Source: Acidimicrobiia bacterium (lineage in GTDB: Bacteria > Actinomycetota > Acidimicrobiia > Spongiisociales > SHLN01). Taken from it: 46,934 nt of DNA. The stretch lies in contig JBFKDW010000013.1 of NCBI GenBank assembly GCA_041619515.1, positions 1 to 46,934 on the forward strand, read 5' to 3'. Positions 15,948 to 39,463 of this stretch are shown here, in pieces; position 1 is the stretch's first letter, and each line of letters begins with the position of its first letter. Position numbers and translations under genes: made by a program. The notes below the pieces were generated by a model. The model saw nothing but the letters and a program-made list of their open reading frames with translations. It made no database searches and was not told the DNA's origin.

Positions 15948-16934
15948 GTGAGTGCCCTTGAACTGCAGGCCGAGATGCTCGAGGTGGTCCGGCTCGATCC
16001 GACCGGCCCGCACGTCGTCGCCATCGGCGGCGGGCACGGCCTCGCCCAGGCGCTGGTGGGAATCCAGTCCTACGCCTCACGCATCGACGCCGTCGTGACC
16101 GTGGCAGACGATGGAGGGTCGTCGGGCCGGCTCACCTCGGCTCTCGACATCCTCCCTCCAGGCGATCTCCGCCGCTGCCTGCTCGCCCTCAGCCCGGAGC
16201 CGAGCCTATGGAGCGAGATGTTCGAGTTCCGATTCGAATCCACCGACGTGGCCGGCCATTCCCTCGGCAATCTCATCCTGGCCGCGATGTCCGAGCTGTT
16301 CGGTGATTTCGAGACGGGTATCAGCGTGGCGGAGGAGGCGCTCGGTTGTGTCGGGCATGTGATACCGAACTCCCGCCGTTCGCTTCACCTGCAAGCGATT
16401 GTCGACGGCACACTGGTCGATGGACAGGCGGCGATAGCCAGGGCCCGCGGGACGATCTCGGAGCTGCGCTTGCTCCCACCCGGGGAGCCGGTCAACCCGC
16501 GAGCCGTTGAGGTGGTGGCTGCAGCCGACCAGATCGTCATCGGCCCGGGCAGCCTCTACACCTCGGTGATCTCAGCCCTCCTCGTCCCGGGCCTCGCAGA
16601 GGCCGTCAATGCATCCTCGGCCGCCGTCGTCTACGTGTGCAATCTGACGACCCAGGATGGCGAGTCCCTCGGCATGGGTGCCGCCGAGCACGTGCAGGCT
16701 CTGCTCGACCTCGCAGGGATCAAGACGCCGCTCACCGCTCTCATCCACCAGGGCGGGCCGCCCTTTCCGCCGGAGGCGGAGTCGGTGGCCGGTGACGAGG
16801 AGCACGTCCTGGCACTCGGGGTCAAGCCGGTGTTCGATGATTTACTCGACCGGAGCCACCACTGGCCCCAGCACGATCCCATTCGGCTGGGTCGCGCCCT
16901 CGGGGAGTTGTGGGAGGAGGACAGCCGGCCGTAG
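15948..16934 (+). CDS. yvcK: YvcK/CuvA (GlmR) UDP-GlcNAc-binding gluconeogenesis factor
   Basis: IGGGHGL, TVADDGGSSGRL, PPGDLRRCL, GHSLGNL, GPGSLYTSV. Confidence 0.95.
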   Translation: MSALELQAEMLEVVRLDPTGPHVVAIGGGHGLAQALVGIQSYASRIDAVVTVADDGGSSGRLTSALDILPPGDLRRCLLALSPEPSLWSEMFEFRFESTDVAGHSLGNLILAAMSELFGDFETGISVAEEALGCVGHVIPNSRRSLHLQAIVDGTLVDGQAAIARARGTISELRLLPPGEPVNPRAVEVVAAADQIVIGPGSLYTSVISALLVPGLAEAVNASSAAVVYVCNLTTQDGESLGMGAAEHVQALLDLAGIKTPLTALIHQGGPPFPPEAESVAGDEEHVLALGVKPVFDDLLDRSHHWPQHDPIRLGRALGELWEEDSRP

Positions 16935-16951
16935 TGCCGCCTCCGGCCGAC

Positions 16952-17967
<1,016 letters not shown>

Positions 17968-17971
<4 letters not shown>

Positions 17972-18981
17972 GCGTTCTCCAGTTGTTGGATCATCTTGGT
18001 GAGGACTTCGACGATGCGTACCGAGTATCCCCAGCCGTTGTCAAACCAGATGATCGCTTTGATCATGGTCCCGTCGACTACGAGCGTGGCGAGGCTGTCG
18101 AAGTTCCCCGACTGGGAGGACCCGATGACGTCCGAGGACACGATCGGGTCGGTCACATACTCGATGATGTCGGCGTAGTGAGCGGCGACCTCTTTTTGTA
18201 CGGTCTCGTTCACCTCGTCGGTCGTGGTGGCGGTGCGCACGAAGGCGACCAGATCGACCGTGGAGCCGTCCGGTACGGGAACGTTGAGCGCCATGGCCGA
18301 GAGCTTCCCGGCCAGCTCGGGCATCACCGACATGAGAATTTCGGGCGAGTTGGTGGTTGCCGGAATGATGTTCTCGCCGGCCGCCCTGCTCGATCTGAAG
18401 CTGGAGGTAGGCACGTCGGCCAGCCGGGCCTGGTTGGTGAAGGCGTGCACGGTGGTGTAGAAGGCGCGATCGAGACCCCAGGTCTGGTCGATGATTCGCA
18501 GTACCGGGGCGACCGCATTCGAGGTGTTGGACCCGAGTGAGACGATGTCGACGTCCGGTGTGAGGATCTCGTCGTTGATCCCGCGCAACAGGATGGGCAC
18601 GTCGTCGGGTTGCTCGGGTGTCGATGCGAGGATCACCCGCTTGGCCCCGGCGGCGATGTGCTTGGAGCACCACTCGCGCGTCCGGTACTTGCCGGTCGCC
18701 TGGATGACGACTTCGACACCCAGCTCACCCCAGTCGACATCGCCGGGCTCTTTGGCAGCGAGGAAGGGGATGGAGGCCCCGCCGATCTTCAGGTTCGTGC
18801 CGTCGAGTTCCACCGGCTTGGGAAAGCGGCCGTAGATGGAGTCGTACTTCAGCAAGTAGGTCAGGGCAGCCGGGTCCGCCGTATCCACGATCGCTGCCAC
18901 CTCGACATCGCCTGCGGCCTCGAGCAATCGGAATACGTTGCGGCCGATCCGCCCGAAGCCCATGAGGCCTACGCGGGCCAT
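17968..18981 (-). CDS. GAPDH-like protein lacking the catalytic Cys (probable pseudoenzyme)
   Basis: Full-length GAPDH fold (GFGRIGR, YLLKYDS, WFDNGWGYS) but SLGSNTSNAVAP replaces SNASCTTNCLAP; ATG 18981 with GGAG RBS; stop overlaps the gap start (ATGA). Confidence 0.92.
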
Positions 18982-19064
18982 CTTGTCTCCTCGTCTCTTG
19001 ATGAGGCGCCAGCCTACCCCCACCGCCCGTCCGCCCGAACTTCCCGTGATAACGTTCGAGGGCT

Positions 19065-20244
<1,180 letters not shown>

Positions 20245-20255
<11 letters not shown>

Positions 20256-21015
20256 GAGCTTTATCTGCGGCAATTGGAAGATGAACGCCTCCCACCTCGA
20301 TGCCATCCAGATGGTGCAGAAGCTGAGCTACCGCCTCGAGCTCTCCGACTACGACCGGGTCGACGTGGTGGTGGCGCCTCCATTCACGTCGCTTCGCTCG
20401 ATACAGACGGTCATCGAAGCCGATCACCTCGCCATCCGTCTGGGAGCCCAGAACGTGCATTGGGAGGAGTCGGGCGCCTACACCGGCGAGGTGTCGCCGT
20501 CGATGCTCGCCAAGCTGGGCGTCGGGTACGTCATCGTCGGGCACTCCGAGCGGCGCCAATTGTTCGGCGAGACCGATACCGACGTCAACCGCAAGGTAAA
20601 GGCCGTGCTCGCGGCCGAAATGATCCCCATCATGTGCCTGGGTGAGACCCTCGACGAGCGTGAAGCCGGAGAAACCGAGAAGCGCGTAGCGGGCCAGCTG
20701 AGCGCAGGTCTCACGGGGCTGTCCTCCGAGCAGGCCACCTCTGTGATCATCGCCTACGAGCCGATCTGGGCCATCGGAACCGGGCGCACCGCCCAGCCGG
20801 ACGACGCCGGTGCCGTCTGCGAGTTCCTGCGCCGGCGCTTCGCCGACGAGTTCGGCGGGCCGGGGGCCGAGCAGGTTCGCATCATCTACGGCGGCTCGGT
20901 CAATCCGGGAAATATCGCTGCCCTCATGGCAAAGAGCCACATAGATGGGGCGCTCGTCGGGGGCGCCTCGCTGGATCCGGACACCTTCGCCTCTATCGTT
21001 CGCTACTGGGTATGA
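20245..21015 (+). CDS. tpiA: Triosephosphate isomerase
   Basis: [38 protein letters not shown] 20245. Confidence 0.98.
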
Positions 21016-21052
21016 AGGACCGTCCGGCACGGCCCTCGAGACGGAGACGGTT

Positions 21053-21805
21053 GTGAGCGAAAACACCCTCGTCTTGTTGCGCCACGGCCAGTCCGTATGG
21101 AACCTGGAGAACCGCTTCACCGGATGGACCGATGTGGGGCTCACCGAGCGGGGTGAGCGGGAAGCTGAGTCGGCGGGGTCCCTCCTGCGTGATGAGGGCT
21201 ACTCGTTTGACCTCGTGTTCACATCCGTACAGAAACGAGCCATCCTCACCGCCAATATCGCACTCGAGGAGATGGACCTCAGCTGGCTGCCCGTGCACCG
21301 CTCCTGGCGCCTCAACGAGCGCCACTACGGAGCCCTGCAGGGCCTCAACAAGAAGGAAACCGCCGACCAGCATGGCGCCGAACAGGTCCACGTATGGCGA
21401 CGCAGCTACGACATCCCCCCGCCGCCGCTGATGCCCGACGACGAGCGCCATCCGCGCCATGATCCCCGCTACGCCGGCTTGGCACCGGATGTGCTTCCGG
21501 CCACCGAATGTCTGAAGGATGTCGTCGAACGCATGCTCCCGTATTGGCACGATGCCATCGTTCCAGCCCTGCGGCGCGGGGAGCGCCCCCTCATCGCCGC
21601 CCACGGCAACAGCCTGCGAGCGCTCGTCAAGCATCTCGACGATGTCAGCGATGAGGAGATCCCGGCCCTGAACATACCCACCGGCATCCCGCTCGTGTAC
21701 GAACTGGACGGGGCGCTCTCGCCCGTGCGCAGCTTCTATCTAGGTGACCCCGAAGCGGCGAAAGCAGCGGCCGAGGCCGTAGCCAGGCAGGCATCGGGAG
21801 GCTGA
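21053..21805 (+). CDS. gpmA: 2,3-bisphosphoglycerate-dependent phosphoglycerate mutase
   Basis: [40 protein letters not shown]. Confidence 0.97.
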
Positions 21806-22802: not shown

Positions 22803-23816
22803 CTAGGGGCCGGTTCGGCTCGGGGCCAGGTGCCGGTAATCGCCGGTGCGGAGATGGCAGGCCGCCTGATGGTCGGATTCGTCCCGGCTGCGGAGCGCCG
22901 GTACTTCGAGGTCGCACACCCCCTGCTGGGCGATCGGACAGCGGGTGTGGAAGTGGCAGCCGGTTGGCGGGTTCATCGGCGACGGAATCTCACCCTGCAG
23001 AATGGTCCGGTTCCGCTGGCGGTCCGGGTTGGGAATCGGGATGGCGGACAGCAGTGCTTCGGTATAGGGGTGCAGCGGCTCGCGATAGAGCGATTCTCGA
23101 TCCGCCAGCTCGACCACCCGGCCCAAATACATCACCGCCACCCGGTCGGAGATGTGCTCGACCACGGCCAGGTTGTGAGCCACGAACAACAGCGTCAGCT
23201 GCAGCTCGGTCTGGAGCTCCTTGAGCAAGTTCAGCACCTGCGCCTGGACGGACACATCGAGGGCGGACACCGGTTCGTCGGCTACGACGAAGTTCGGCTC
23301 CATTATCAGTGCCCGGGCGATACCGATGCGCTGGCGCTGGCCGCCTGAGAATTCGTGGGGGAAACGACTTGCGTGACTCGACCGAAGTCCTACCAGATCG
23401 AGCATCCGGTTTACCCGCTCGCGACGCTCGTCCTTGTCACCCACCCCGTGCATCCGGAGACCTTCGGCGATCGATGCCCCAACCTGAGCCCGGGGGTCGA
23501 GTGATGAGTACGGGTCCTGGAAGATGATCTGCATGCGGCGCCGAAAAGGCTTGAGCTCCTTGCCCTTGAGGTGGGTGATGTCGTGCCCGCCAAACCTGAT
23601 CGTGCCCGAGGTGGGCTCGATGAGGCGCACCAGCAGCCTTCCGAGGGTGGTCTTGCCACAGCCCGATTCGCCCACCAGGCCGATGGTCTCGCCCCGCTGA
23701 ATATCCAGGTTGGCGCCGGCCACTGCGTTGACGGTGGCGATCTGACGCTGCAGGATGCCCCCCTTGACGGGGAATTGCTTGACGAGGTCTCGGATCTCGA
23801 CGAGAGGCTCAGCCAT
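22803..23816 (-). CDS. dppF: Dipeptide/oligopeptide ABC transporter ATPase (DppF-like)
   Basis: [29 protein letters not shown]-terminal Cys cluster; ATG 23816. Confidence 0.9.
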
Positions 23817-24849
23817 CACTCGAGTCCTCTGCATAGAGCCAGCACCGCACCTTGTGCCCACCACCGATCTGCAGCAGCTCCGGGTCCTGTTCGGTGCAAA
23901 TCTCGAGGCCGTTCTGGACTCTGGCGACGCAGCGTGAAGCGAAGCGGCACCCGGGAGGCAGGTCGATGAGCTGGGGGACGATTCCCGGGATCACCTCGAG
24001 GCGGTCGGACAGCTGCCCGAGGATCGGGATCGAGCCGATGAGGCCCTGCGTGTACGGGTGCTTCGGATCCCTGAACAGCGTGCGGACGTCGGTTTCCTCG
24101 ACAACCTCCCCCGCGTACATGACCGCCACCCGGTCGGCCATCTCGGCAACCACTCCGAGGTCATGAGTGATGAGGATGACCGAAGTGTTCGAAGATGCCT
24201 GCAGATCCCGCATCAGGTCGAGGATCTGGGCCTGAATGGTGACGTCCAGGGCGGTCGTCGGTTCATCGGCGATCAGCAGCTGGGGTTCACAGGCCAATGC
24301 CATGGCGATCATGACGCGCTGGGCCATGCCACCGGAGAGCTCATGCGGGTAGGCGCGGGCTCGTGAAGCCGGGTCCGGGATGCCGACCCTGGCGAGCATC
24401 TCGATGACTTTCTCCTCCTCGATGTCTTTCGACCACTCGCGGTGAAGCTGGAAGACCTCCCGGATCTGGATCCCGGCGCGTTGCACCGGGTTCAACGACG
24501 AGGTTGGCTGCTGGAAGATCATCGAGATCTGCTCGCCCCGCATCCCCCGCACCTCGTCCTTGTTCATGTCGACCAGGTTCTTCCCGTTGAGGAGGATCTC
24601 TCCGGCGACGACTTCGCCGGGGTGAGCAACGAGGCCCATGATGGAAAGGGCGGTAACCGACTTTCCGCAGCCGGACTCTCCGACGATTCCAAGCACTTCG
24701 CCCCGATCCACACCGAGGCTCACCCCGTCGACTGCTCTGACAACGCCGTCACGGGTGTCGAAGTGGGTCTTGAGGCCGCGGATGTCCAGCATGCGGGCCG
24801 CTCCTGCAACCGTGGCCCCGTGCGGATCTGGTGCCGCCGCCGTCGTCAT
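23809..24849 (-). CDS. dppD: Dipeptide/oligopeptide ABC transporter ATPase (DppD-like)
   Basis: [27 protein letters not shown] 24849 overlaps the dppC stop. Confidence 0.9.
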
Positions 24850-25811
24850 CGGTTGAGCGTGGGGTCGAGCGCGTCGCGCAGGCCGTCGCCCATGAGGTTG
24901 AAGCCCAGCACGGTGATCATGATCGCCAGGCCGGGGAAGAACACCAGATGGGGGGAGGTGAACACCTGGTTGCGTTCCCTGGCCAGCATCGAGCCCCACT
25001 CGGCCTGCGGCTCCTGGGCGCCGAGCCCCAGGAAGGAGAGGCCGGCCGCTTCGAGGATGGCGGTGGCGATGCCGAGGGTGGCAAGCACCACCAGAGGCGT
25101 CATGGCGTTGGGGACGATGCGTCTGAGCAGAATCTGGCGCGGGGCGGCGCCGAGCGCACGGGCGGCCGACACGAAGTCGGCCTCCTTGAGGGCGAGCACC
25201 TGAGCCCGCATGACCCGCGCGTAGGCGGGGATGCTGACAACGGCGATGGCGATGAGGGCATTGCGCAACCCCGCTCCAAATACCGAGACGATGGCAATGG
25301 CCAACAGGAGCGAGGGGAAGCCCAGCACGACGTCCATGATCCGCATGATGATGTTGTCGAGCCATCCGCCGGTGTAGCCGGCGATGGCCCCGAGCAGCGT
25401 TCCGACCACCAGGGCAATGGTCACCGTGAAGAAGCCGAGCGTGAGACTGACCCTGCTGCCGAAGACGATGCGGGAAAACTGGTCCCGGGTGTTGCCGTCG
25501 GTGCCGAGGATGTGCTGGGGCAATTCGTCATCACACCCCAGGACATGAACGCAGGGCGGCGCCCGGCGCACCACGCCCTCTTCTTCGCCGACCAAGACGT
25601 TGTTGGGCTCGAACGGGGCGATGAGGGGAGCGAAGATCGCCACGAGGACCAGGAACGAGATGATGGCGAGCCCAACCATTCCGGACCGGCGCTGGCGGAA
25701 CCGGCGCAACGCCAGGCGACCCTGGCTGAGCGGCTTCTCCGTCAAGAGGGTGGCATCGGCTGCCATTGCCTCCAGTTGCTCCATGGCTTGTCTTCGGCTG
25801 AGCATGGTCAA
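24846..25811 (-). CDS. dppC: Peptide ABC transporter permease (DppC-like)
   Basis: HILGTD..RD.FSR, EAA loop (FVSAARALGA), EWGSML. Confidence 0.9.
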   Translation of the reverse strand: MTMLSRRQAMEQLEAMAADATLLTEKPLSQGRLALRRFRQRRSGMVGLAIISFLVLVAIFAPLIAPFEPNNVLVGEEEGVVRRAPPCVHVLGCDDELPQHILGTDGNTRDQFSRIVFGSRVSLTLGFFTVTIALVVGTLLGAIAGYTGGWLDNIIMRIMDVVLGFPSLLLAIAIVSVFGAGLRNALIAIAVVSIPAYARVMRAQVLALKEADFVSAARALGAAPRQILLRRIVPNAMTPLVVLATLGIATAILEAAGLSFLGLGAQEPQAEWGSMLARERNQVFTSPHLVFFPGLAIMITVLGFNLMGDGLRDALDPTLNR

Positions 25812-26887
25812 TCCACCCTGATTCGAGGATCGAGATAGGCATACGAAAGATCGACGAGCAAGTTAACGATCACGTAGCCGGCGGCGATGATCACGGTGAA
25901 CCCCTGCACGATGGCGTAATCCCTGCCTTCGATGGCGTCGAACAGGGCTCTCCCGACCCCGGCCAGGTTGAACACCGTCTCGGTCAGTACGGCACCGCCG
26001 AGCAGCAGGCCCAGCTGCAGGCCGATGATGGTGACCACCGGCAGCAGGGAGTTGCGGAGGGCATGGCGGCGGACCACTCGCTTCTCCTTCGCTCCCTTGG
26101 CGCGTGCGGTCCGGATGTAGTCCTTGCCCATGACTTCGAGCAGTGAGCTGCGGGTTATCCGGGCGATGATGGCCAGTGGGATCGTGGCGAGGGCGACCGC
26201 CGGCAGGATCATGTGCCTGACCGCCGCGCGGAAGATGTCCCATTGACCGGTGATGGCCGAGTTGAAGATGTAGTGGTTGCCGATGAACTCGTGGAACTTG
26301 GCCCAGGCACTGCCTTCGGCAAAGGTCCATCCCCACACCTCGTAATAGGGATCCGAGAAGACGCCCGCCGGCAGGCGTCCCGACGGTGGGAGCGCGAACG
26401 CCGTGTCCCGCAGGACGAGGGCGAACACGTAGGCGAGCATGAGCCCGAGCCAGAACACCGGCATCGAAACCCCGACGTTGGCGAAGGCCATCGTGGCGGT
26501 ATCGACCGCAGTGTTGTGCTTGCGGGCGGCAAGCACGCCCAGAGGGACGCCGACGGCAACGGCAATTGTCAAGGCCGATAGAGCCAGCTCGATGGTGAGG
26601 GGCAACCGCTCGATGAGGAGCTGGTTGACGGGACGGGAGAATCGGATCGATTCCCCCAGGTCGAACGTGACGACGTTCTTCATGTAGATCCCGAGCTGGA
26701 TGAAGATCGGCTCGTTGAGGCCGTTGGCCTCGTCGAATCGGGCGCACGCCTCCTCGGTGGCCTGTTCGCCCAGGATGGCCGTGCACGGATCGCCGGGGAT
26801 GGCCCGGATGAGGAAGAACACGACGACAACGATCCCGATGAGCACCGGGATCGCAAGGAGCGTCCGTCGAATGATGAAGCTGAGCAT
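25808..26887 (-). CDS. dppB: Peptide ABC transporter permease (DppB-like)
   Basis: IPGDP, DLGES, DYIRTARAKG, HALRN, DPRI. Confidence 0.92.
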   Translation of the reverse strand: MLSFIIRRTLLAIPVLIGIVVVVFFLIRAIPGDPCTAILGEQATEEACARFDEANGLNEPIFIQLGIYMKNVVTFDLGESIRFSRPVNQLLIERLPLTIELALSALTIAVAVGVPLGVLAARKHNTAVDTATMAFANVGVSMPVFWLGLMLAYVFALVLRDTAFALPPSGRLPAGVFSDPYYEVWGWTFAEGSAWAKFHEFIGNHYIFNSAITGQWDIFRAAVRHMILPAVALATIPLAIIARITRSSLLEVMGKDYIRTARAKGAKEKRVVRRHALRNSLLPVVTIIGLQLGLLLGGAVLTETVFNLAGVGRALFDAIEGRDYAIVQGFTVIIAAGYVIVNLLVDLSYAYLDPRIRVD

Positions 26888-26910
26888 CTGAGTAGGAGAT
26901 CAGAGTACAG

Positions 26911-26941
26911 AAAGGGGGAGACGCCGGGCGTCTCCCCCTTT
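26911..26941 (-). terminator. Intercistronic stem-loop after dppA
   Basis: Inverted repeat AAAGGGGGAGACGCC-G-GGCGTCTCCCCCTTT between the SBP and permease genes. Confidence 0.8.
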
Positions 26942-26967
26942 CATATTTGTGACATGCCTTTCTGTGC

Positions 26968-28659
26968 CTAGTTGGCGTTGATGAGTCCGTCCCACAGGTA
27001 GTCGTAGTAGGTCCACGCACCCGTGTTGCCGACATGGAGCGGGCTCGCCGCATCGAGGCCGGCGGTGAACGATGCCACCACGTCGTTGGCGTCGAAGGCC
27101 GAACCGTCGTGGAACGACACGCCCGAACGCAGGGTGCAGGTCCACACCGTCAGGTCGTCGTTGGGGGCGCAATCGGTGGCCAGCTGCGGGGTGGGCTCGC
27201 CGGTGGGCGAGTACCCGTACAGCGCTTCAACCACCTGGTTGCAGGCACGGAGCGATTCACCGTCGGACTCGTCGGCGCAGTACAGCGAGATCGGCTCGTT
27301 GCCCTGCATGAAGACGAAGGTGTCGTCTCCGTTGTCCATCAAGTGGAACAACACCTGGCCCCACGGTGGGGCATACGCACCCGCAACGTCGGCCCCGAAG
27401 GCGAACGCCGTTGCCGAGTGCACGATCGGCACCATCGGCACGAACTCCTTCAGCGCGTTGTTGGCGTCGGCATAGAGCGGGGCCGCCTCGGAGAAGTCGG
27501 CCAGCTTCGAGGCCTGCGCCAGCGGCTCGGTGTAGCTGGGATCCTGCACACCGAACTGCGGGTTGTTGGCCGTGAAGTGGAAGTCCAGGAAGTTGGTGAT
27601 GTGCGGATAATCACCCGTCCATCCCAACAGATAGATGCCGTCGAGCCGTCCCGCCTGGGACTCCTCGATGAAAGCACCCGACTCCATCACCTCAATGGTG
27701 GCGCTGATTCCGAGATCGGCCAGCTGATCCTGCAGGTCGACTGCCACCGCTCCCGGCTCCGGCAAGTAGCCGCGGAACACATCACGGTAGAAGATGGTGG
27801 TGTCGAACCCGTTGGCAAACCCGGCGTCTGCCAGCAGCTGCTTGGCCGCGTCCAGGTCGAAGTCGTACCACGAGTCGCCCTCGCATCCGCCCTGCACCGA
27901 GCAGGGAGTGAAGTGGGAGGCCACCTCTGATCCGGGCGGGTAGAACTGGTCGACGATCCGCTGACGATCGATGCCCACAGCGAGTGCCTTGCGAACGTCC
28001 GGGTTGTCGAACGGCGCAAACGTGTTGGTCATGGCCACGTACAGGATGTTGGCTTCGATCTTGGGCACCAGCGCCAGGTTGGGGTCGGCCTCGATGACTG
28101 CATAGTCGTCGGTGCTGGGGAAGGTGATCCCGTCGACATTGCCCGACTGGAGCTCGAGCAGGCGCTGGGCACCCTCGGTGGCCCACCGGAGGACGGCCGT
28201 GGAATGCGGCGCCAATGTGCCGTAGTAGTCGTCGTTGCGCTCGTACACCACCGAGTCGCCTGCCTGCCACTCGACGAGCGAGTATGGGCCGGTCCCGACC
28301 GGGTTGCGCAGTGGGGCACCGCCCGTCGCTTCCAGGTGCTCTTTGGGCTGGATGCCGAACACGCTGAATGCGAGCTTGGCCAGGAAGGCCGGGTCGGGGC
28401 TGCACAAGTCGAACTGCACGGTGAATTCATCCGTGGCGCTCACCTTGTTGATCTTGCCTCCGTAGTCACAACCACCCGAGTCGAGGACGTCACCCACGAA
28501 TCCCGGATCCGGGGCCTGAGTGGTCGTCGGACCGGCAGCCGTGGTTGTGGTTGCTGGTGCCGCGGTGGTTGTTGCACCACCCCCGTCGTCACCGCCACAG
28601 GCGGCGGCAACGAGCGCGAACGCAAACGCGACCGCGGCCCACTTCACGTGTCTTCTCAT
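26968..28659 (-). CDS. dppA: DppA-like family 5 substrate-binding lipoprotein, circularly permuted
   Basis: Lipobox LVAAAC, Thr-rich linker, PVGTGPY, VRKALAVGIDR, GWTGD; the canonical N-terminal signature (LAT..NDDLTVWTCTLRSGVSFHDG..FDANDVVASF) lies at the C-terminus. Confidence 0.9.
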   Translation of the reverse strand: MRRHVKWAAVAFAFALVAAACGGDDGGGATTTAAPATTTTAAGPTTTQAPDPGFVGDVLDSGGCDYGGKINKVSATDEFTVQFDLCSPDPAFLAKLAFSVFGIQPKEHLEATGGAPLRNPVGTGPYSLVEWQAGDSVVYERNDDYYGTLAPHSTAVLRWATEGAQRLLELQSGNVDGITFPSTDDYAVIEADPNLALVPKIEANILYVAMTNTFAPFDNPDVRKALAVGIDRQRIVDQFYPPGSEVASHFTPCSVQGGCEGDSWYDFDLDAAKQLLADAGFANGFDTTIFYRDVFRGYLPEPGAVAVDLQDQLADLGISATIEVMESGAFIEESQAGRLDGIYLLGWTGDYPHITNFLDFHFTANNPQFGVQDPSYTEPLAQASKLADFSEAAPLYADANNALKEFVPMVPIVHSATAFAFGADVAGAYAPPWGQVLFHLMDNGDDTFVFMQGNEPISLYCADESDGESLRACNQVVEALYGYSPTGEPTPQLATDCAPNDDLTVWTCTLRSGVSFHDGSAFDANDVVASFTAGLDAASPLHVGNTGAWTYYDYLWDGLINAN

Positions 28660-28716
28660 CGTTTTTCCTCCTCAAAACACACTTGAGCGGACCGGTAGGT
28701 CGCGCTCGTGGGACCC

Positions 28717-28771
28717 AACCTAACCTGTTGCGGGCATTGGTGCAGCGGAGGCTCGAGTCTTTCCATATAAT
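28717..28771. promoter_or_regulatory. Candidate divergent -10 elements for the dpp and opp operons
   Basis: TATAAT on + at 28766-28771 and TAGGTT on - at 28717-28722, in the 222-bp divergent gap. Confidence 0.4.
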
Positions 28772-28881
28772 TCCAAGAACCATTGCACGCAGCGCGAAAC
28801 TTCGGCTACGCTTTCCCCATTCCATCCGAACCCATTTGTGAGGTTCGGCATGGAGTTCCTTTTCTGAGGAGGAAAGAATCA

Positions 28882-30570
28882 ATGACAATCAATAAGAGAT
28901 GGTTGCGCCTTGTTGCTCTCCTGGGGGCGCTGGCGCTGGTCGCGGCCGCCTGTGGCGGTGACGACAGTGGCGAAGCCACAACCACGACAGCTGACCCCGG
29001 TGGCGGCGCAACCACGACGACCGTGGCGGCGACGACCACGACGGTCGAGCCGATGACAGGAGGAGAGATCTCCTTCTATATCTCGGAGCCGCCGTTCATC
29101 GACCCGTCGCTGGTGCAGGACAACCAGGGCTTTGAGGTCGTTCGGCTGCTTTTCGACGGCTTGACTCTGTACTCGCCTGAGGGCGGTGCGGTGGTTCCGG
29201 GCGTCGCCGAGTCGTGGGAGGCCAACGACGACTTGACAGTCTGGACGTTCAACCTGCGCGACTCGCAGTGGCCGGATGGAAGCCCGGTGACGGCACAGGA
29301 CTTCATCTACGGCTGGGGACGGGCGGCTGATCCCGACTCTGCGTCCCGGGTTGCCTATCACGGTTCCATCGCCGGCATCGTCGGCTGGGACGAGGTAAAC
29401 GGTGGCGATGCCGACGGCACCGTCGGCAACGTCGAGATTCCTGGTCTGCGTGCGGTCGACGACAGCACGCTCGAGATCACGCTCAACCAGACGAACTCGC
29501 TGCTTCCCAAGATCCTGGCGCACCCGGTGTTCTCGCCGGCCCAGCAGTCCGTGGTCGAAGCAGACCCCGAGGCGTTTGCCGAGATGCCGGTCGGAAACGG
29601 CCCGTACAAGATGTCCGAGCCGTGGCAGCACGACGTGGCCATCAACGTCGAGCGGAGTGACACCTACTACGGCACGCCCGGCTTGCCGGACTCCATCGAG
29701 TTCCGCGTTTACTCCACGCAGGATGCTGCCTGGCTGGATTTCCAGGCCGGCAACGTCGACGTGGTGCGCGGAGTTCCCGATGAGGCACTCGAGCAGGCAC
29801 GGGTCGATCTCGGTGATCGTCTCATCGAGCAGCCGACCGGTTCCTTCACGTACCTCGGCCTGCCGTGGTCGTTCGAGCCGTTCCAGAACGCCGACCTTCG
29901 TCGGGCGCTTCTGATGGCCATCGATACCGAAGCGATCAACGAGCGGATCTTCATCGGCCGTGACACGCCCCGTGGCTTTGTGCCGGGCGTCGCCAACGGT
30001 GCCATCGAAGACGGCTGCCCGTGGTGTCGTTTTGATCCGACCGAGGCCAAGGCCCTGTACGACTCCGTCGGCGGAGTCCCGAACGACGAGCTGAACATCG
30101 TGTTCAACTCGGGTGCCGGGCACGAGCAGTGGGTCGAGGCCGTCGCCAACGACTGGGGCACGAACCTCGGAATCACCGCCAACTTCCAGGGCTTCGAGTG
30201 GGCCGCCTACCTGGACTACCTGTTCGGCGAGACGCCGAACACGGATCCGTTCCGGTTGGGCTGGGGATGGGACTACCCGTCCGGGTACAACTTCCTTGCC
30301 CCGCTCTATGGCTGTGAGTCGGCAGACAACCTGACCGGTTTCTGCAGTCCCGAGCTGGACGTGGAGCTGAACAAGGTGATCACGTCGCTGAAGGAAGAGG
30401 ACGGCATTCCTGCCCTCCAGGAGGCACAGCGTATCGTCGGTGACCTGATCCCGGTGATCCCGATCACCTACGGTCGTTCCGCCGTTGCCTACAGCGAGGA
30501 CCTGTCCAACGTCAGGTACACCGACTTCGGTTTCTTCATCTTTGAAGACGTCGTCGTCGATCGCGGCTAA
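28882..30570 (+). CDS. oppA: OppA-like family 5 substrate-binding lipoprotein (canonical order)
   Basis: GAGGAGG RBS, ATG 28882, lipobox VAAAC, Thr linker, N-terminal AESWEANDDLTVWTFNLR..WPDG.PVTAQDF, PVGNGPY. Confidence 0.92.
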   Translation: MTINKRWLRLVALLGALALVAAACGGDDSGEATTTTADPGGGATTTTVAATTTTVEPMTGGEISFYISEPPFIDPSLVQDNQGFEVVRLLFDGLTLYSPEGGAVVPGVAESWEANDDLTVWTFNLRDSQWPDGSPVTAQDFIYGWGRAADPDSASRVAYHGSIAGIVGWDEVNGGDADGTVGNVEIPGLRAVDDSTLEITLNQTNSLLPKILAHPVFSPAQQSVVEADPEAFAEMPVGNGPYKMSEPWQHDVAINVERSDTYYGTPGLPDSIEFRVYSTQDAAWLDFQAGNVDVVRGVPDEALEQARVDLGDRLIEQPTGSFTYLGLPWSFEPFQNADLRRALLMAIDTEAINERIFIGRDTPRGFVPGVANGAIEDGCPWCRFDPTEAKALYDSVGGVPNDELNIVFNSGAGHEQWVEAVANDWGTNLGITANFQGFEWAAYLDYLFGETPNTDPFRLGWGWDYPSGYNFLAPLYGCESADNLTGFCSPELDVELNKVITSLKEEDGIPALQEAQRIVGDLIPVIPITYGRSAVAYSEDLSNVRYTDFGFFIFEDVVVDRG

Positions 30571-30591
30571 CCGACCACCATCTAGACGGAG

Positions 30592-30623
30592 ACTCCCCGG
30601 AGGCCATGCCTTCGGGGAGTTTT
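30592..30623 (+). terminator. Intercistronic stem-loop after oppA
   Basis: ACTCCCCGGAGGC-CAT-GCCTTCGGGGAGT followed by TTT. Confidence 0.75.
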
Positions 30624-30644
30624 CGCGGCTAGAGTGCCACGCAG

Positions 30645-31574
30645 ATGTTTCGCTACACCGTGCGCCGGACGCTGCTGATGATTCCGACCTTCATCGGTGC
30701 GAGTGCCATCATCTTCTTCGCCGGCTTCGCCTTGCCGGGCGATCCCGTCTCGGCGTTCGGCGGCGAGCGCGCACTTTCTGAGGCGACCCGACAGGTCCTC
30801 GAGGAGCGCTACCGGCTCGACCAGCCGCTCATCAACCAGTACCTCGGCTACATGAGCGACGTCGTTCTCCACCAGGATCTCGGTGAGTCGGTGCTGCGTC
30901 GCCGCTCCGTCAACGACATATTCTGGGATGCGTTCCCGAACACGTTCCGCCTGGCCATGCTGGCGGCGGCGATCGAAATCGTCATCGGCCTGGCGGCGGG
31001 TGTCCTGGCGGCGCTGAGAAAGGGGAAGTTCATCGATCAGCTTGTGCTGATCTCGACGACGCTGGTGGTGTCTATCCCCGTGTTCGTGCTCGCCTTCGCG
31101 TCGCAGATCTACTTTGGGGTTGAACTCGGGATCTTCCCGATCGCCGGCCTCAACGAAGGCCTCAAGTCATATCTGCTGCCGGCTTTTGTTCTCGCGGCGC
31201 TGTCGCTCGCGTACGTGGCCCGCCTTACCCGCACCAGCCTGGTTGAGACGATGCGCTCCGACTACATCCGCACCGCCCAGGCCAAGGGCCTGCGACCGTC
31301 GCGTGTCATCGGGCGCCACGGGTTGCGCAACGCGCTCATCCCGGTGGTCACCTACATCGGCATCGACATCGCCGTCCTGATGGGTGGGGCGATCGTCACC
31401 GAGACCGTGTTCAACATTCCGGGTGCTGGATTTGCCCTGGTGCGGGCCATCGGCACTCGTGACAATGCCATCGTCGTCGGCTTCACGCTGGCGGCGGTCA
31501 TCATCTTCCTGCTGGTCAGCCTGCTCATCGATCTCCTCTACGCCGTGCTCGACCCGAGGATCAGGTATGAGTGA
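30645..31574 (+). CDS. oppB: Oligopeptide ABC permease
   Basis: LPGDP, DLGES, DYIRTAQAKG, LDPRIRY. Confidence 0.92.
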   Translation: MFRYTVRRTLLMIPTFIGASAIIFFAGFALPGDPVSAFGGERALSEATRQVLEERYRLDQPLINQYLGYMSDVVLHQDLGESVLRRRSVNDIFWDAFPNTFRLAMLAAAIEIVIGLAAGVLAALRKGKFIDQLVLISTTLVVSIPVFVLAFASQIYFGVELGIFPIAGLNEGLKSYLLPAFVLAALSLAYVARLTRTSLVETMRSDYIRTAQAKGLRPSRVIGRHGLRNALIPVVTYIGIDIAVLMGGAIVTETVFNIPGAGFALVRAIGTRDNAIVVGFTLAAVIIFLLVSLLIDLLYAVLDPRIRYE

Positions 31575-32541
31575 CGATCTCATCGAACCGCACGTCGAAC
31601 GCGCTGAGACGATCGTCGAAGCAGAGAGCGGCGGCGATATCGAGGCGATCGAGCGGGCGGCCTCGCTGTGGAGCGACGCCTGGCGCGAGCTTCGCAAGCG
31701 GTGGATCTTCTGGATCGCAGCCGGCCTCATCGGCCTCTTCACAACCATGGCCGCAGTCCCGCAGGTATTCGTTGCTCCCTCGCCGGCCACCCACGATCCG
31801 AGGGAGTGCTCGTTGCGGGCCGCCGACGGCACCTTTCAGGACCGCCTGCGGCCCTCGAGCGAGCACTGGTTCGGCACCGATCTCCAGGGGTGCGACTACT
31901 ACGCCCGGGTCATCTACGGTGCCCGCGTGTCGATCGTCATCGGCATCGGGGTTATCGCTCTCGCCGGGCTCATCGGGTTGGCGCTGGGAGGCATCGCCGG
32001 CTTCTACGGGGGTTGGTTCGACAATCTGATCTCCCGGTTCGTCGACGTCCTGTTTGCGATCCCATTCCTGGTCGCGGCCATTCTGTTCCTCAATGTCATT
32101 GCCAGCGACGGCGGTCGAGGCCTGGGTCACGTGCTGCTGGTGCTTGGGGTGTTCGGCTGGCCGACCATATCGAGGCTGTTCCGTGCCTCGGTCATCCAGG
32201 CCAAAGCGCAGGATTATGTGGAAGCGGCCAGGGCGGTGGGCGCCAGCAACATGCGGATTCTGATTCGTCACATCCTTCCGAACGCCATTGCCCCCGCCAT
32301 CGTGTATTCGACGATCGCCATCGGCGGGGTCATCGCTGCTGAGGCCACGCTGTCGTTCCTCGGAGTCGGACTGCAGCTGCCGGCCATCTCCTGGGGCCTG
32401 ATGATCAACAATGCCCAAACCAGGATCCTCACGACGCCCCACCTGCTCATCTTCCCCAGCATTTTCCTCAGCCTGACCGTGCTCGGCTTCCTCCTGCTGG
32501 GGGACGCCGTGCGTGACGCCCTCGACCCGCGGCTGCGATAA
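31567..32541 (+). CDS. oppC: Oligopeptide ABC permease
   Basis: ATG 31567; SLWSDAW, HWFGTD, YVEAARAVGA, DALDPR. Confidence 0.92.
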   Translation: MSDDLIEPHVERAETIVEAESGGDIEAIERAASLWSDAWRELRKRWIFWIAAGLIGLFTTMAAVPQVFVAPSPATHDPRECSLRAADGTFQDRLRPSSEHWFGTDLQGCDYYARVIYGARVSIVIGIGVIALAGLIGLALGGIAGFYGGWFDNLISRFVDVLFAIPFLVAAILFLNVIASDGGRGLGHVLLVLGVFGWPTISRLFRASVIQAKAQDYVEAARAVGASNMRILIRHILPNAIAPAIVYSTIAIGGVIAAEATLSFLGVGLQLPAISWGLMINNAQTRILTTPHLLIFPSIFLSLTVLGFLLLGDAVRDALDPRLR

Positions 32542-32543
32542 GG

Positions 32544-33567
32544 ATGGCGACGAGCATCGAATACCCCGCGCTGCGAGCACGACCGGAGGTGGGCGATGTC
32601 CTGCTCGAGGTCGAGAACCTGTCGGTCGAGTTCCATACCGATGCCGGTGTTGTCAAGGCCGTCAACCGGGTGACGTTCAACCTGCGGGCGGGCGAGACGA
32701 TGGCCATCATCGGTGAATCCGGAAGCGGCAAGAGCGTGACAGCCCAGGCGATCATGGGCATCGTCCCGATACCGCCCGGGGTGGTGACCGCAGATGCGAT
32801 CCGCTATCGGGGCAGCGATTTGGAGCACATGTCCGAGCGTCAGCGGCGCAAGGTGCGGGGCGATCAAATTGCCATGATCTTTCAGGATCCGCTCACTTCG
32901 CTGAACCCGGTGTACTCAGTGGGATTCCAGATCGGTGAGATGTTCCGGGTCCATCGCGGCATGTCGCGCAAGGAAGCCAAGGAGCGGTCGATCGAGCTCA
33001 TGGACCGCGTGCGGATTCCCGAGGCCCGCCGCCGCGTCGGAGATTACCCACATCAATTCTCGGGCGGTATGCGGCAGCGGGTCATGGTTGCCATGGCCCT
33101 CGCCCTCGAGCCCACCATTCTCATCGCAGATGAGCCGACCACAGCCCTCGATGTGACCGTCCAGGCGCAGATCATGGAGATCCTCCACGAGCTGCAGGAG
33201 GACAACAACATGGGCTTGATCCTCATCACCCATGACCTCGGTGTGGTGGCGTCGGTGGCGGATTCCATCATGCTCATGTATGCCGGGTCGGTGATGGAGA
33301 AGGCTCCGGCCGATGACTTCTACGCCAGTCCGGCTCATCCATACGCACACGGGCTGATGAAATCCGTGCCCCGCCTCATTCACCAGGCGGGCCGCCTCGA
33401 CCCCATCGAGGGGGCTCCACCCAGCTTGCTGAACGTCCCCCCCGGATGCCCCTTCAACCCGCGTTGTCCCCACACCCGGGACCGGTGTCGTGAGGAGGTG
33501 CCGGCGCTGCGTCCCATCACCGGCTACGTGGGCCAGGTGGCGTGTCATTTCGCTGAGGAAGTGCGGC

Positions 33568-33575
<8 letters not shown>
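32544..33575 (+). CDS. oppD: Oligopeptide ABC ATPase
   Basis: [24 protein letters not shown]. Confidence 0.92.
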
Positions 33576-34581
<1,006 letters not shown>

Positions 34582-39378: not shown

Positions 39379-39463
39379 GTCGGAGTGGCGGAATTGGTAG
39401 ACGCGCTAGGTTGAGGGCCTAGTGGGCTAATAGCCCGTGGAGGTTCGAGTCCTCTCTCCGACA
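39379..39463 (+). tRNA. tRNA-Leu(GAG)
   Basis: Acceptor GTCGGAG/CTCCGAC+A, D-loop GGAATTGGTAGAC, anticodon arm CTAGG-TTGAGGG-CCTAG, long variable arm GGGCTAATAGCCC, T-loop GTTCGAGTC; followed by CCG rather than CCA. Confidence 0.97.

Follow-up and report, generated by a model that had tools for sequence, protein, structure and literature searches.

A Conserved GAPDH Paralog without the Catalytic Cysteine, Encoded Next to an Intact gap in Acidimicrobiia: A Candidate Non-Catalytic Subunit

Introduction

GAPDH is among the best-studied enzymes, and in bacteria it is treated as a homotetramer. A hydrogen bond between Tyr46 and Glu276 crosses its Q interface. Residue numbers of the Cys149 type were assigned by alignment and follow the B. 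stearothermophilus convention; Y45, T204 and similar numbers are those of the partner Gap described below. As given in passages of PMC5119734, the R interface consists of residues of the NAD domain and the loop 181–206, and the Q interface of residues 43–53 and 274–291; the Y46G/R52G double mutant of B. stearothermophilus GAPDH is described in an excerpt of PMC8910861 as O-P dimers. The phosphate sites are defined as Thr179, Asp/Thr181 and Arg231 for Ps (sections of PMC5385343 and PMC12041015) and as Ser148, Thr150, Thr208 and Gly209 for Pi (a section of PMC2662861).

Chloroplast GAPDH (GapA/GapB; PDB 2PKQ) is an A2B2 heterotetramer of two GAPDH paralogues and offers an analogy for the locus studied here; its B subunits are labelled O/Q in part of the text of bioRxiv 10.1101/2021.11.21.469434. 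Epd (TIGR01532) is likewise a GAPDH paralogue with altered phosphate sites, and all catalytic residues are lost in USG, of the USG/Asd2 branch of the GapDH superfamily (both from passages of PMC12041015). A case from another enzyme family is the trypanosomatid AdoMetDC prozyme, a catalytically dead paralogue that forms a heterodimer with its enzyme (an excerpt of PMC6221367).

The 2025 superfamily review, which covers the dead USG/Asd2 branches, mentions no dead GAPDH partner in the sections available (PMC12041015). A search of the full-text literature, with subscription journals and supplements outside its scope, found no published description of the paralog family reported here or of a dead partner of type I GAPDH, and the family is apparently undescribed. 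Databases annotate the paralog as a second active GAPDH.

Results

The gap Locus

The window, that is, the whole stretch of 46,934 nucleotides analyzed, contains an intact gap directly after a GAPDH paralog (Table 1). A preliminary description of this DNA had reported an intact, full-length GAPDH homolog with its own ribosome-binding site and an ATGA overlap with gap, and each of these points holds: the 337-aa frame is uninterrupted, GAGGAG stands ahead of its ATG, and the overlap is present. No other GAPDH-like genes occur in the genome (3.1 Mb, 96% complete). The two proteins are 45% identical, and the GC3 of both genes is 0.85. The paralog ends level with Gap, has no C-terminal extension and contains a single Cys, at residue 105.

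Both Pfam domains of GAPDH were found in the paralog. With the type I profile TIGR01534 it scores 302.4 bits, under the cut-off of 367.2, which the partner Gap exceeds with 453.3 bits; with the Epd profile TIGR01532 it reaches 229.4 bits, under the cut-off of 530.55. A search of the ESM Atlas with the paralog returned generic GAPDH/E4PDH clusters only, E4PDH names being the nearest.

Table 1. Coordinates of features of the gap locus in the window.
Feature	Position	Strand	Remark
Partner gap, catalytically intact, 339 aa (P0002)	16952..17971	minus	TIGR01534 453 bits, above cut-off
ATGA overlap of paralog stop and gap start	17968..17971	minus	sequence
Cys-less GAPDH paralog, 337 aa (P0001)	17968..18981	minus (18981->17968)	no internal stop
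GGAG 5 nt before gap ATG, within the paralog 3' end	17977-17980	minus	sequence
Gly316 at the Glu314 position, family signature	18034..18036	minus	position computed from ORF start
Asn233 at the Ps-site Arg231 position	18283..18285	minus	position computed from ORF start
Asn152 (AAC codon) at the catalytic Cys149 position	18526..18528	minus	alignment; Asn in 111/111 orthologues
GAGGAG, Shine-Dalgarno-like, 5 nt before paralog ATG	18987..18992	minus	sequence
pgk-tpi-phosphoglycerate mutase	19065..21805	plus	divergent from the gap pair across ~83 bp

In the region 15948–21805 the gap pair is oriented against the genes on either side: yvcK ends at a distance of 17 bp from the stop codon of gap, and the interval of ~83 bp between the paralog and the outward-running pgk-tpi-mutase genes is a likely bidirectional promoter region. 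This layout recurs in loci of family f1, and the divergent pgk is also seen in L010. The usual actinobacterial order places whiA between yvcK and gap; no whiA-sized ORF is present there in the window. A scan for promoters and terminators gave 1 and 1 sites, which is near chance, with none on the minus strand. Elsewhere in the window, two peptide ABC transporter clusters stand back to back on opposite strands (22803–34581), and a tRNA gene at 39379–39463 is the sole Rfam match.

Loss of Catalytic Residues in the Paralog Family

Asn152 of the paralog aligns with Cys154 of the neighbouring Gap and with the Cys149 position of the B. stearothermophilus enzyme, and the AAC codon reported for it was confirmed. 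The motifs MALNVP, TTNSP and GFGRIGR and the altered S-loop are likewise all as first described. In addition, Arg195, Asp181 and Glu314 are replaced here by Ser, Gln and Gly, respectively; Gly209 is Asn.

We compared these positions in a de-duplicated set of genome loci with 111 paralogs, 107 partners and 27 unpaired Gaps, each of at least 300 aa. L019 and L124, one row per set, derive from the unpublished genome G028, and no claim depends on them; L111, L112, L114 and L119 are paralog-like by score and were classed as unpaired Gaps by motif. The top homologues (n = 120, query included; 62–100% identity, Acidimicrobiia where named) all carry Asn149, Asn231 and Gly314. Asn149 is also present in 111 of 111 Acidimicrobiia paralogs, with the codon AAC in 94 and AAT in 17. 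Because Asn occurs in 120/120 homologues and 111/111 orthologues and both codons are used, an assembly error is rejected; the preliminary description had already argued against a single-base error, AAC being two substitutions from TGC.

Among the 111 paralogs, position 231 is Asn in 98, Thr in 12 and Gly in one, and never Arg; Arg195 and Gly209 are found in none and Asp181 in 13, and Gly314 stands in place of Glu in all. This position is also Gly or Ser in distant relatives of the paralog. The hydroxyls of the Pi site are retained (Ser148 in 111; Thr150 in 107 and Ser in four; Thr208 in 107 and Ser in four), and so is Thr/Ser179 of the Ps site. The same is true of the dinucleotide site, with GxGxxG retained, Asp32 and Tyr317 in all 111 and Asn313 in 109. 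Thirty-two of the paralogs contain no Cys anywhere.

Two points of the preliminary description were modified by these counts. The acidic residue and the His that it listed as retained are present in this paralog (Asp33 and His179), but position 176 is His in 79 orthologues and Lys in 32. The change to TTNSP had been read as a change of the Pi site, and Gly209 is indeed replaced in all; the three hydroxyls stay, however, so that the site is only partly lost. The paralogs with Lys176 (L020, L029, L078 and kin) form a sub-branch with a different pocket.

By the published site definitions, the paralog is a protein whose sequence has no nucleophile and no Ps site left but still has its dinucleotide site and the hydroxyls of the Pi site. 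With Cys149 absent, and Arg231, Arg195 and mostly Asp181 gone, the thioacyl mechanism is impossible for it; for this conclusion the sequence is sufficient. Conservation within the family is lowest in surface regions (0.48–0.52) and reaches 0.81–0.97 in the S-loop, residues 42–56 and GxGxxG.

Selection and Linkage to gap

The median dN/dS of the paralog is 0.13 (range 0.02–0.26; Nei-Gojobori, 343 of 397 close pairs with dS 0.05–1.5, the pairs not being independent), and that of the partner is 0.085. For the paralog of the window and seven kin the ratio is 0.07–0.18. An intact gap follows the paralog in 106 of 110 loci, a count that includes some genomes twice, and the remaining four are contig ends. 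The spacing in the 106 loci is −4 in 85, −1 in three, +1 in 13, +2 in four and +3 in one; the prevailing ATGA overlap suggests translational coupling of the paralog and gap. Wherever flanking DNA was readable, every paralog had a partner gap beside it. The distance matrices of paralog and partner correlate with r = 0.91, as is expected for any co-inherited genes.

Linkage and dN/dS of the homologs were among the checks proposed in the preliminary description, and purifying selection, the invariant Asn and the tight linkage uphold its picture of a maintained pseudoenzyme coupled to gap. It had also named Cys retention or neutral decay among orthologs as observations against this picture; neither is seen in Acidimicrobiia, but relatives in other phyla often retain the Cys.

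It should be added that in L158, a locus of the single-contig genome G348, a frameshift splits the paralog and the partner retains the paired-type residues, which would be a read error or a very recent loss.

Distribution

In the order to which the window belongs (399 genomes), two GAPDH matches are usual in families f1, f3, f4, f5, f8, f10 and f11 and occur in part of the genomes of f9 and f12; f2, f6, f7 and the genus g36 gave no scores of the paralog level. In the sample of the rest of the class, two matches at this score level are found in one family with ~1-Mb genomes (25 of 26 genomes), and the tandem pair of paralog and gap is present in all 12 of the ~1-Mb genomes checked. In a phylum sample of 401, such scores are confined to genomes of the window's own order, at a threshold of 1e-112 that would miss divergent paralogs; three other matches in this sample are ordinary Gaps.

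Relatives named as Acidobacteria, Deltaproteobacteria, Anaerolineae, Thermoanaerobaculia and Planctomycetota have an altered 208–212 loop and Gly/Ser314 in common. In this wider family the Cys is kept in many members and Arg231 in some; the remaining members have Asn, Ser, Ile, Gly or Ala at position 149, and the residues seen at 231 include N, T, R, S and K. A distant paralog was found in 36 of 64 metagenome loci, with a partner-type gap directly after it in 29, the other seven contigs being too short or ending. In a quick tree (midpoint root, long branches), a single clade (SH-aLRT 99) unites the actinobacterial paralogs, and all of these paralog-type sequences fall outside the Gap clade. 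Loss of the Cys is thus a derived state within an older family and probably occurred repeatedly, a qualification of the picture in the preliminary description.

Several loci deviate from the general picture. L193, L194 and L198 (64–67% identical to P0124) have Asn for Cys among mostly Cys-keeping relatives, which suggests a convergent change. P0139, P0134 and P0133 are more degenerate Cys-less relatives, the first of 420 aa with an N-terminal extension of ~85 residues and 137 cluster members. The f2 genomes G419, G421 and G461 have a second, partner-like Gap and no paralog, and in L173:1492-2505 and L175:1501-2505 a partner-like Gap follows a gene that by eye resembles a GH3 beta-glucosidase. 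A search with the Gap protein at E <= 1e-20 was negative for G345, G336 and G337 (93–96% complete, 1–9 contigs), which possibly have no type I GAPDH.

Ten genomes with a single gene were checked as further candidate losses of the paralog, and all were rejected: G356, G357, G361, G487, G547, G596 and G607 are contig ends or splits, a frameshifted paralog is present in G348, G345 is without any match, and only a Gap of unrelated type is visible in G594. A search for longer forms gave 14 hits, of which the two-domain P0451–P0453 are single-member clusters with out-of-frame-looking stretches and were read as frameshift artefacts; no genuine fusion emerged from this search, which is weak evidence of absence.

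Residues of Paired and Unpaired Gaps

The catalytic Cys, His, Asp181 and both Arg are present in 107 of 107 partner Gaps; in P0002 the residues are Cys154, His181, Arg199 and Arg235. P0002 carries the partner-type Y45, LADV and T204-E205, with Asn49 and Gln55 where most GAPDHs of the class have Tyr46 and Arg52. Paired Gaps (n = 107) have Y45, L189, A190 and T204 without exception, V192 in 95 and S200 in 87, and the related unpaired Gaps (n = 16) have H45, A200 and A204 in all 16 and V192 in none. Six of these residues, Y45, L189, A190, V192, S200 and E205, are common to the paralog and the paired Gaps. Tyr at position 45 also occurs in eight of the 19 other unpaired Gaps. Partners outside Actinomycetota have Y45 and LADV/LADW where covered, and T204 is mostly absent from them.

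Close relatives of the partner Gap thus occur without a paralog. In the genus g36 (G152 and G309; 95 and 92% complete), the single Gap lies in a different gene neighbourhood and is not preceded by a paralog; its residues are H45, I189, L190, A192, A200 and A204. After removal of the trait columns (residues 36–56 and 183–209), the g36 Gaps are nested within the paired Gaps of their own family with support of 95/95 (87/94 in a second tree); forcing them out of the paired clade lowers lnL by 34.7, which is borderline and not significant in the AU test (p = 0.052). The genus appears to have lost the paralog. The contrast between paired and unpaired Gaps represents few independent events, namely one nested loss and three or four unpaired groups of unresolved position.

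At the Q interface, Tyr46 is found in 35 of 35 unpaired Gaps of the class and 109 of 111 paralogs and in 76 of 107 partners, and an acidic residue at 276 in 35 of 35, 111 of 111 and 85 of 107, respectively. Both Tyr46 and Arg52 are missing in 27 of 107 partners, that of this genome included, whereas every paralog and every unpaired Gap has at least one of the two. These positions also vary in a diverse set of 79 ordinary GAPDHs, with Tyr46 in 58 and Arg52 in 25, and so does Glu276.

As paired Gaps show changes in contact regions that are missing in paralog-less relatives, Gap probably works with a non-catalytic partner. The active Gap itself is probably specialised for this partner, and the evidence for this is what the window adds.

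Predicted Structures

The AlphaFold2 model of the paralog has a pLDDT of 89.5, with low values in the S-loop of the monomer, and a TM score of 0.89 at ~40% identity to GAPDH structures. The predicted Gap-paralog dimer with NAD scores 0.54 against 0.01 for the best control, with at least 99% of contacts agreeing between runs and a pLDDT of 93 for the partner. Of 157 solved complexes, 116 attained the mark for complexes, as did 2 of 215 mismatches; passes at <=0.60, however, comprised only 18 of the 157 and both mismatches; solved GAPDH tetramers could moreover give this pair a pass by likeness. The dimer prediction lends weak support to a physical complex. For the heteromeric GAPDH suggested in the preliminary description, the case is indirect and consists of the partner-specific residues of the S-loop and NAD domain, absent from unpaired relatives and suggestive of adaptation, together with this weak prediction.

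Discussion

The paralog retains the fold and also residues within the ranges that form the P, Q and R interfaces, and it adjoins, stop to start, one particular clade of Gap. We consider it reasonably probable that it is a subunit of a heteromeric GAPDH, one that is non-catalytic, probably binds NAD and is made in step with Gap, with a 2+2 tetramer as the simplest form. The paralog would be co-translated with the active Gap via the stop-to-start overlap, and the two would assemble, the unlike subunits meeting at the co-adapted contact of S-loop and NAD domain (R-type). The Q contact would probably be like-with-like, since the paralog has kept the Q residues, which in the partner are relaxed; the O/Q labelling of the chloroplast B subunits, in the text cited above, suggests the same placement of like subunits. 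The paralog would bind NAD(H), and its presence may lend the oligomer stability or adjust the cooperativity between active sites. The benefit of pairing could be regulatory, or the pair could be no more than a structural dependence that has become entrenched. The conservation of Asn149, Ser148, Thr150 and Thr208 is stricter than a pure scaffold requires, and this counts against the reading.

More tentatively, this could be an obligate two-gene GAPDH, a possibility we rate as somewhat unlikely. The active subunit would then be unable to build a normal homotetramer, and the dead subunit would supply the missing contacts and act as an allosteric half that senses NAD(H) and phosphate with its conserved Asn-Ser-Thr pocket; the dependence would be reversible, the active subunit regaining ordinary interface residues after loss of its partner.

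The paralog could instead be a transient regulator or assembly factor that binds Gap only in certain conditions, whether to inhibit it by exchange of subunits, to sense redox state or NADH, or to help in folding, Gap normally being a homotetramer; we hold this to be unlikely. The retained NAD motifs, the viability of unpaired relatives of the partner Gap and the Cys of many non-actinobacterial relatives, which could sense oxidation, are compatible with such a role, but 32 of 111 orthologues are entirely without Cys, translational coupling would be expected to hold the two proteins at fixed and nearly equal levels, and the relaxed Tyr46/Arg52 of many partners fits a standing dependence better.

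The conserved pocket bears on another reading, in which the paralog is a stand-alone ligand binder, or an NAD-dependent enzyme that needs no Cys and whose substrate is some other phosphorylated or anionic metabolite, and the linkage reflects co-regulation only. The conservation of Asn149, Ser148, Thr150 and Thr208 in 111 orthologues, of the basic character of residue 176 (His in 79, Lys in 32) and of Asn231 in 98 speaks for it, as does the change of Cys to Asn in three loci of mostly Cys-keeping relatives; members of the GapDH superfamily active without the Cys also exist, although these are distant reductase domains (a passage of PMC12041015). Across the wider family, however, the residues found at position 149 are C, N, S, I, G and A, and 231 varies too, with no shared chemistry, and the partner-specific residues of Gap and the near-universal overlap are left unexplained; we consider this reading unlikely as well.

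Many non-glycolytic roles of GAPDH are known (parts of PMC5385343), and the paralog might be a moonlighting protein of the GAPDH fold outside glycolysis, for example in binding nucleic acids or proteins, its operon position being due to ancestry. This is very unlikely: the surface regions are its least conserved parts (0.48–0.52 vs. 0.81–0.97), and no paralog was seen apart from a partner gap where the DNA permitted. A decaying duplicate or sequencing artefact, for which only the frameshifted paralog of the closed genome G348, possibly a read error, could be cited, can be dismissed in view of dN/dS of 0.02–0.26, an intact paralog in 111 orthologues, its persistence in ~1-Mb genomes and DNA contigs from other runs that match this stretch.

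If the paralog is indeed a partner subunit, a widespread dead subunit kept even in streamlined genomes of ~1 Mb would be a new form of GAPDH. With half of its sites dead, such a natural tetramer would permit direct tests of cooperativity across defined interfaces, and the paired, unpaired and apparently reverted Gaps are a ready series for asking whether the heteromer is adaptive or merely entrenched.

Compared with type I GAPDH (TIGR01534; EC 1.2.1.12; B. stearothermophilus 1GD1), the paralog has the same fold, both Pfam domains, GxGxxG, Asp32, Ser148/Thr150/Thr208, Asn313 and, here, His176, but it differs in Cys149->Asn, Arg231->Asn, Arg195->Ser, Asp181->Gln, Gly209->Asn and Glu314->Gly, lies below the family cut-off and is paired with an intact gap wherever the flank is readable. 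GapB of the chloroplast enzyme has active sites and regulates via a C-terminal extension with a Cys pair, whereas the paralog has neither the extension nor the catalytic Cys. Epd requires its Cys and His; the paralog is far under the Epd cut-off and lacks this Cys. USG, in turn, is Asd-like and has no assigned role. Two features expected of a prozyme-like partner, the loss of catalytic residues and purifying selection, are seen in the sequences of the paralog, and, by analogy with the prozyme as described in the cited excerpt, it probably works like a dead-paralog partner of this kind.
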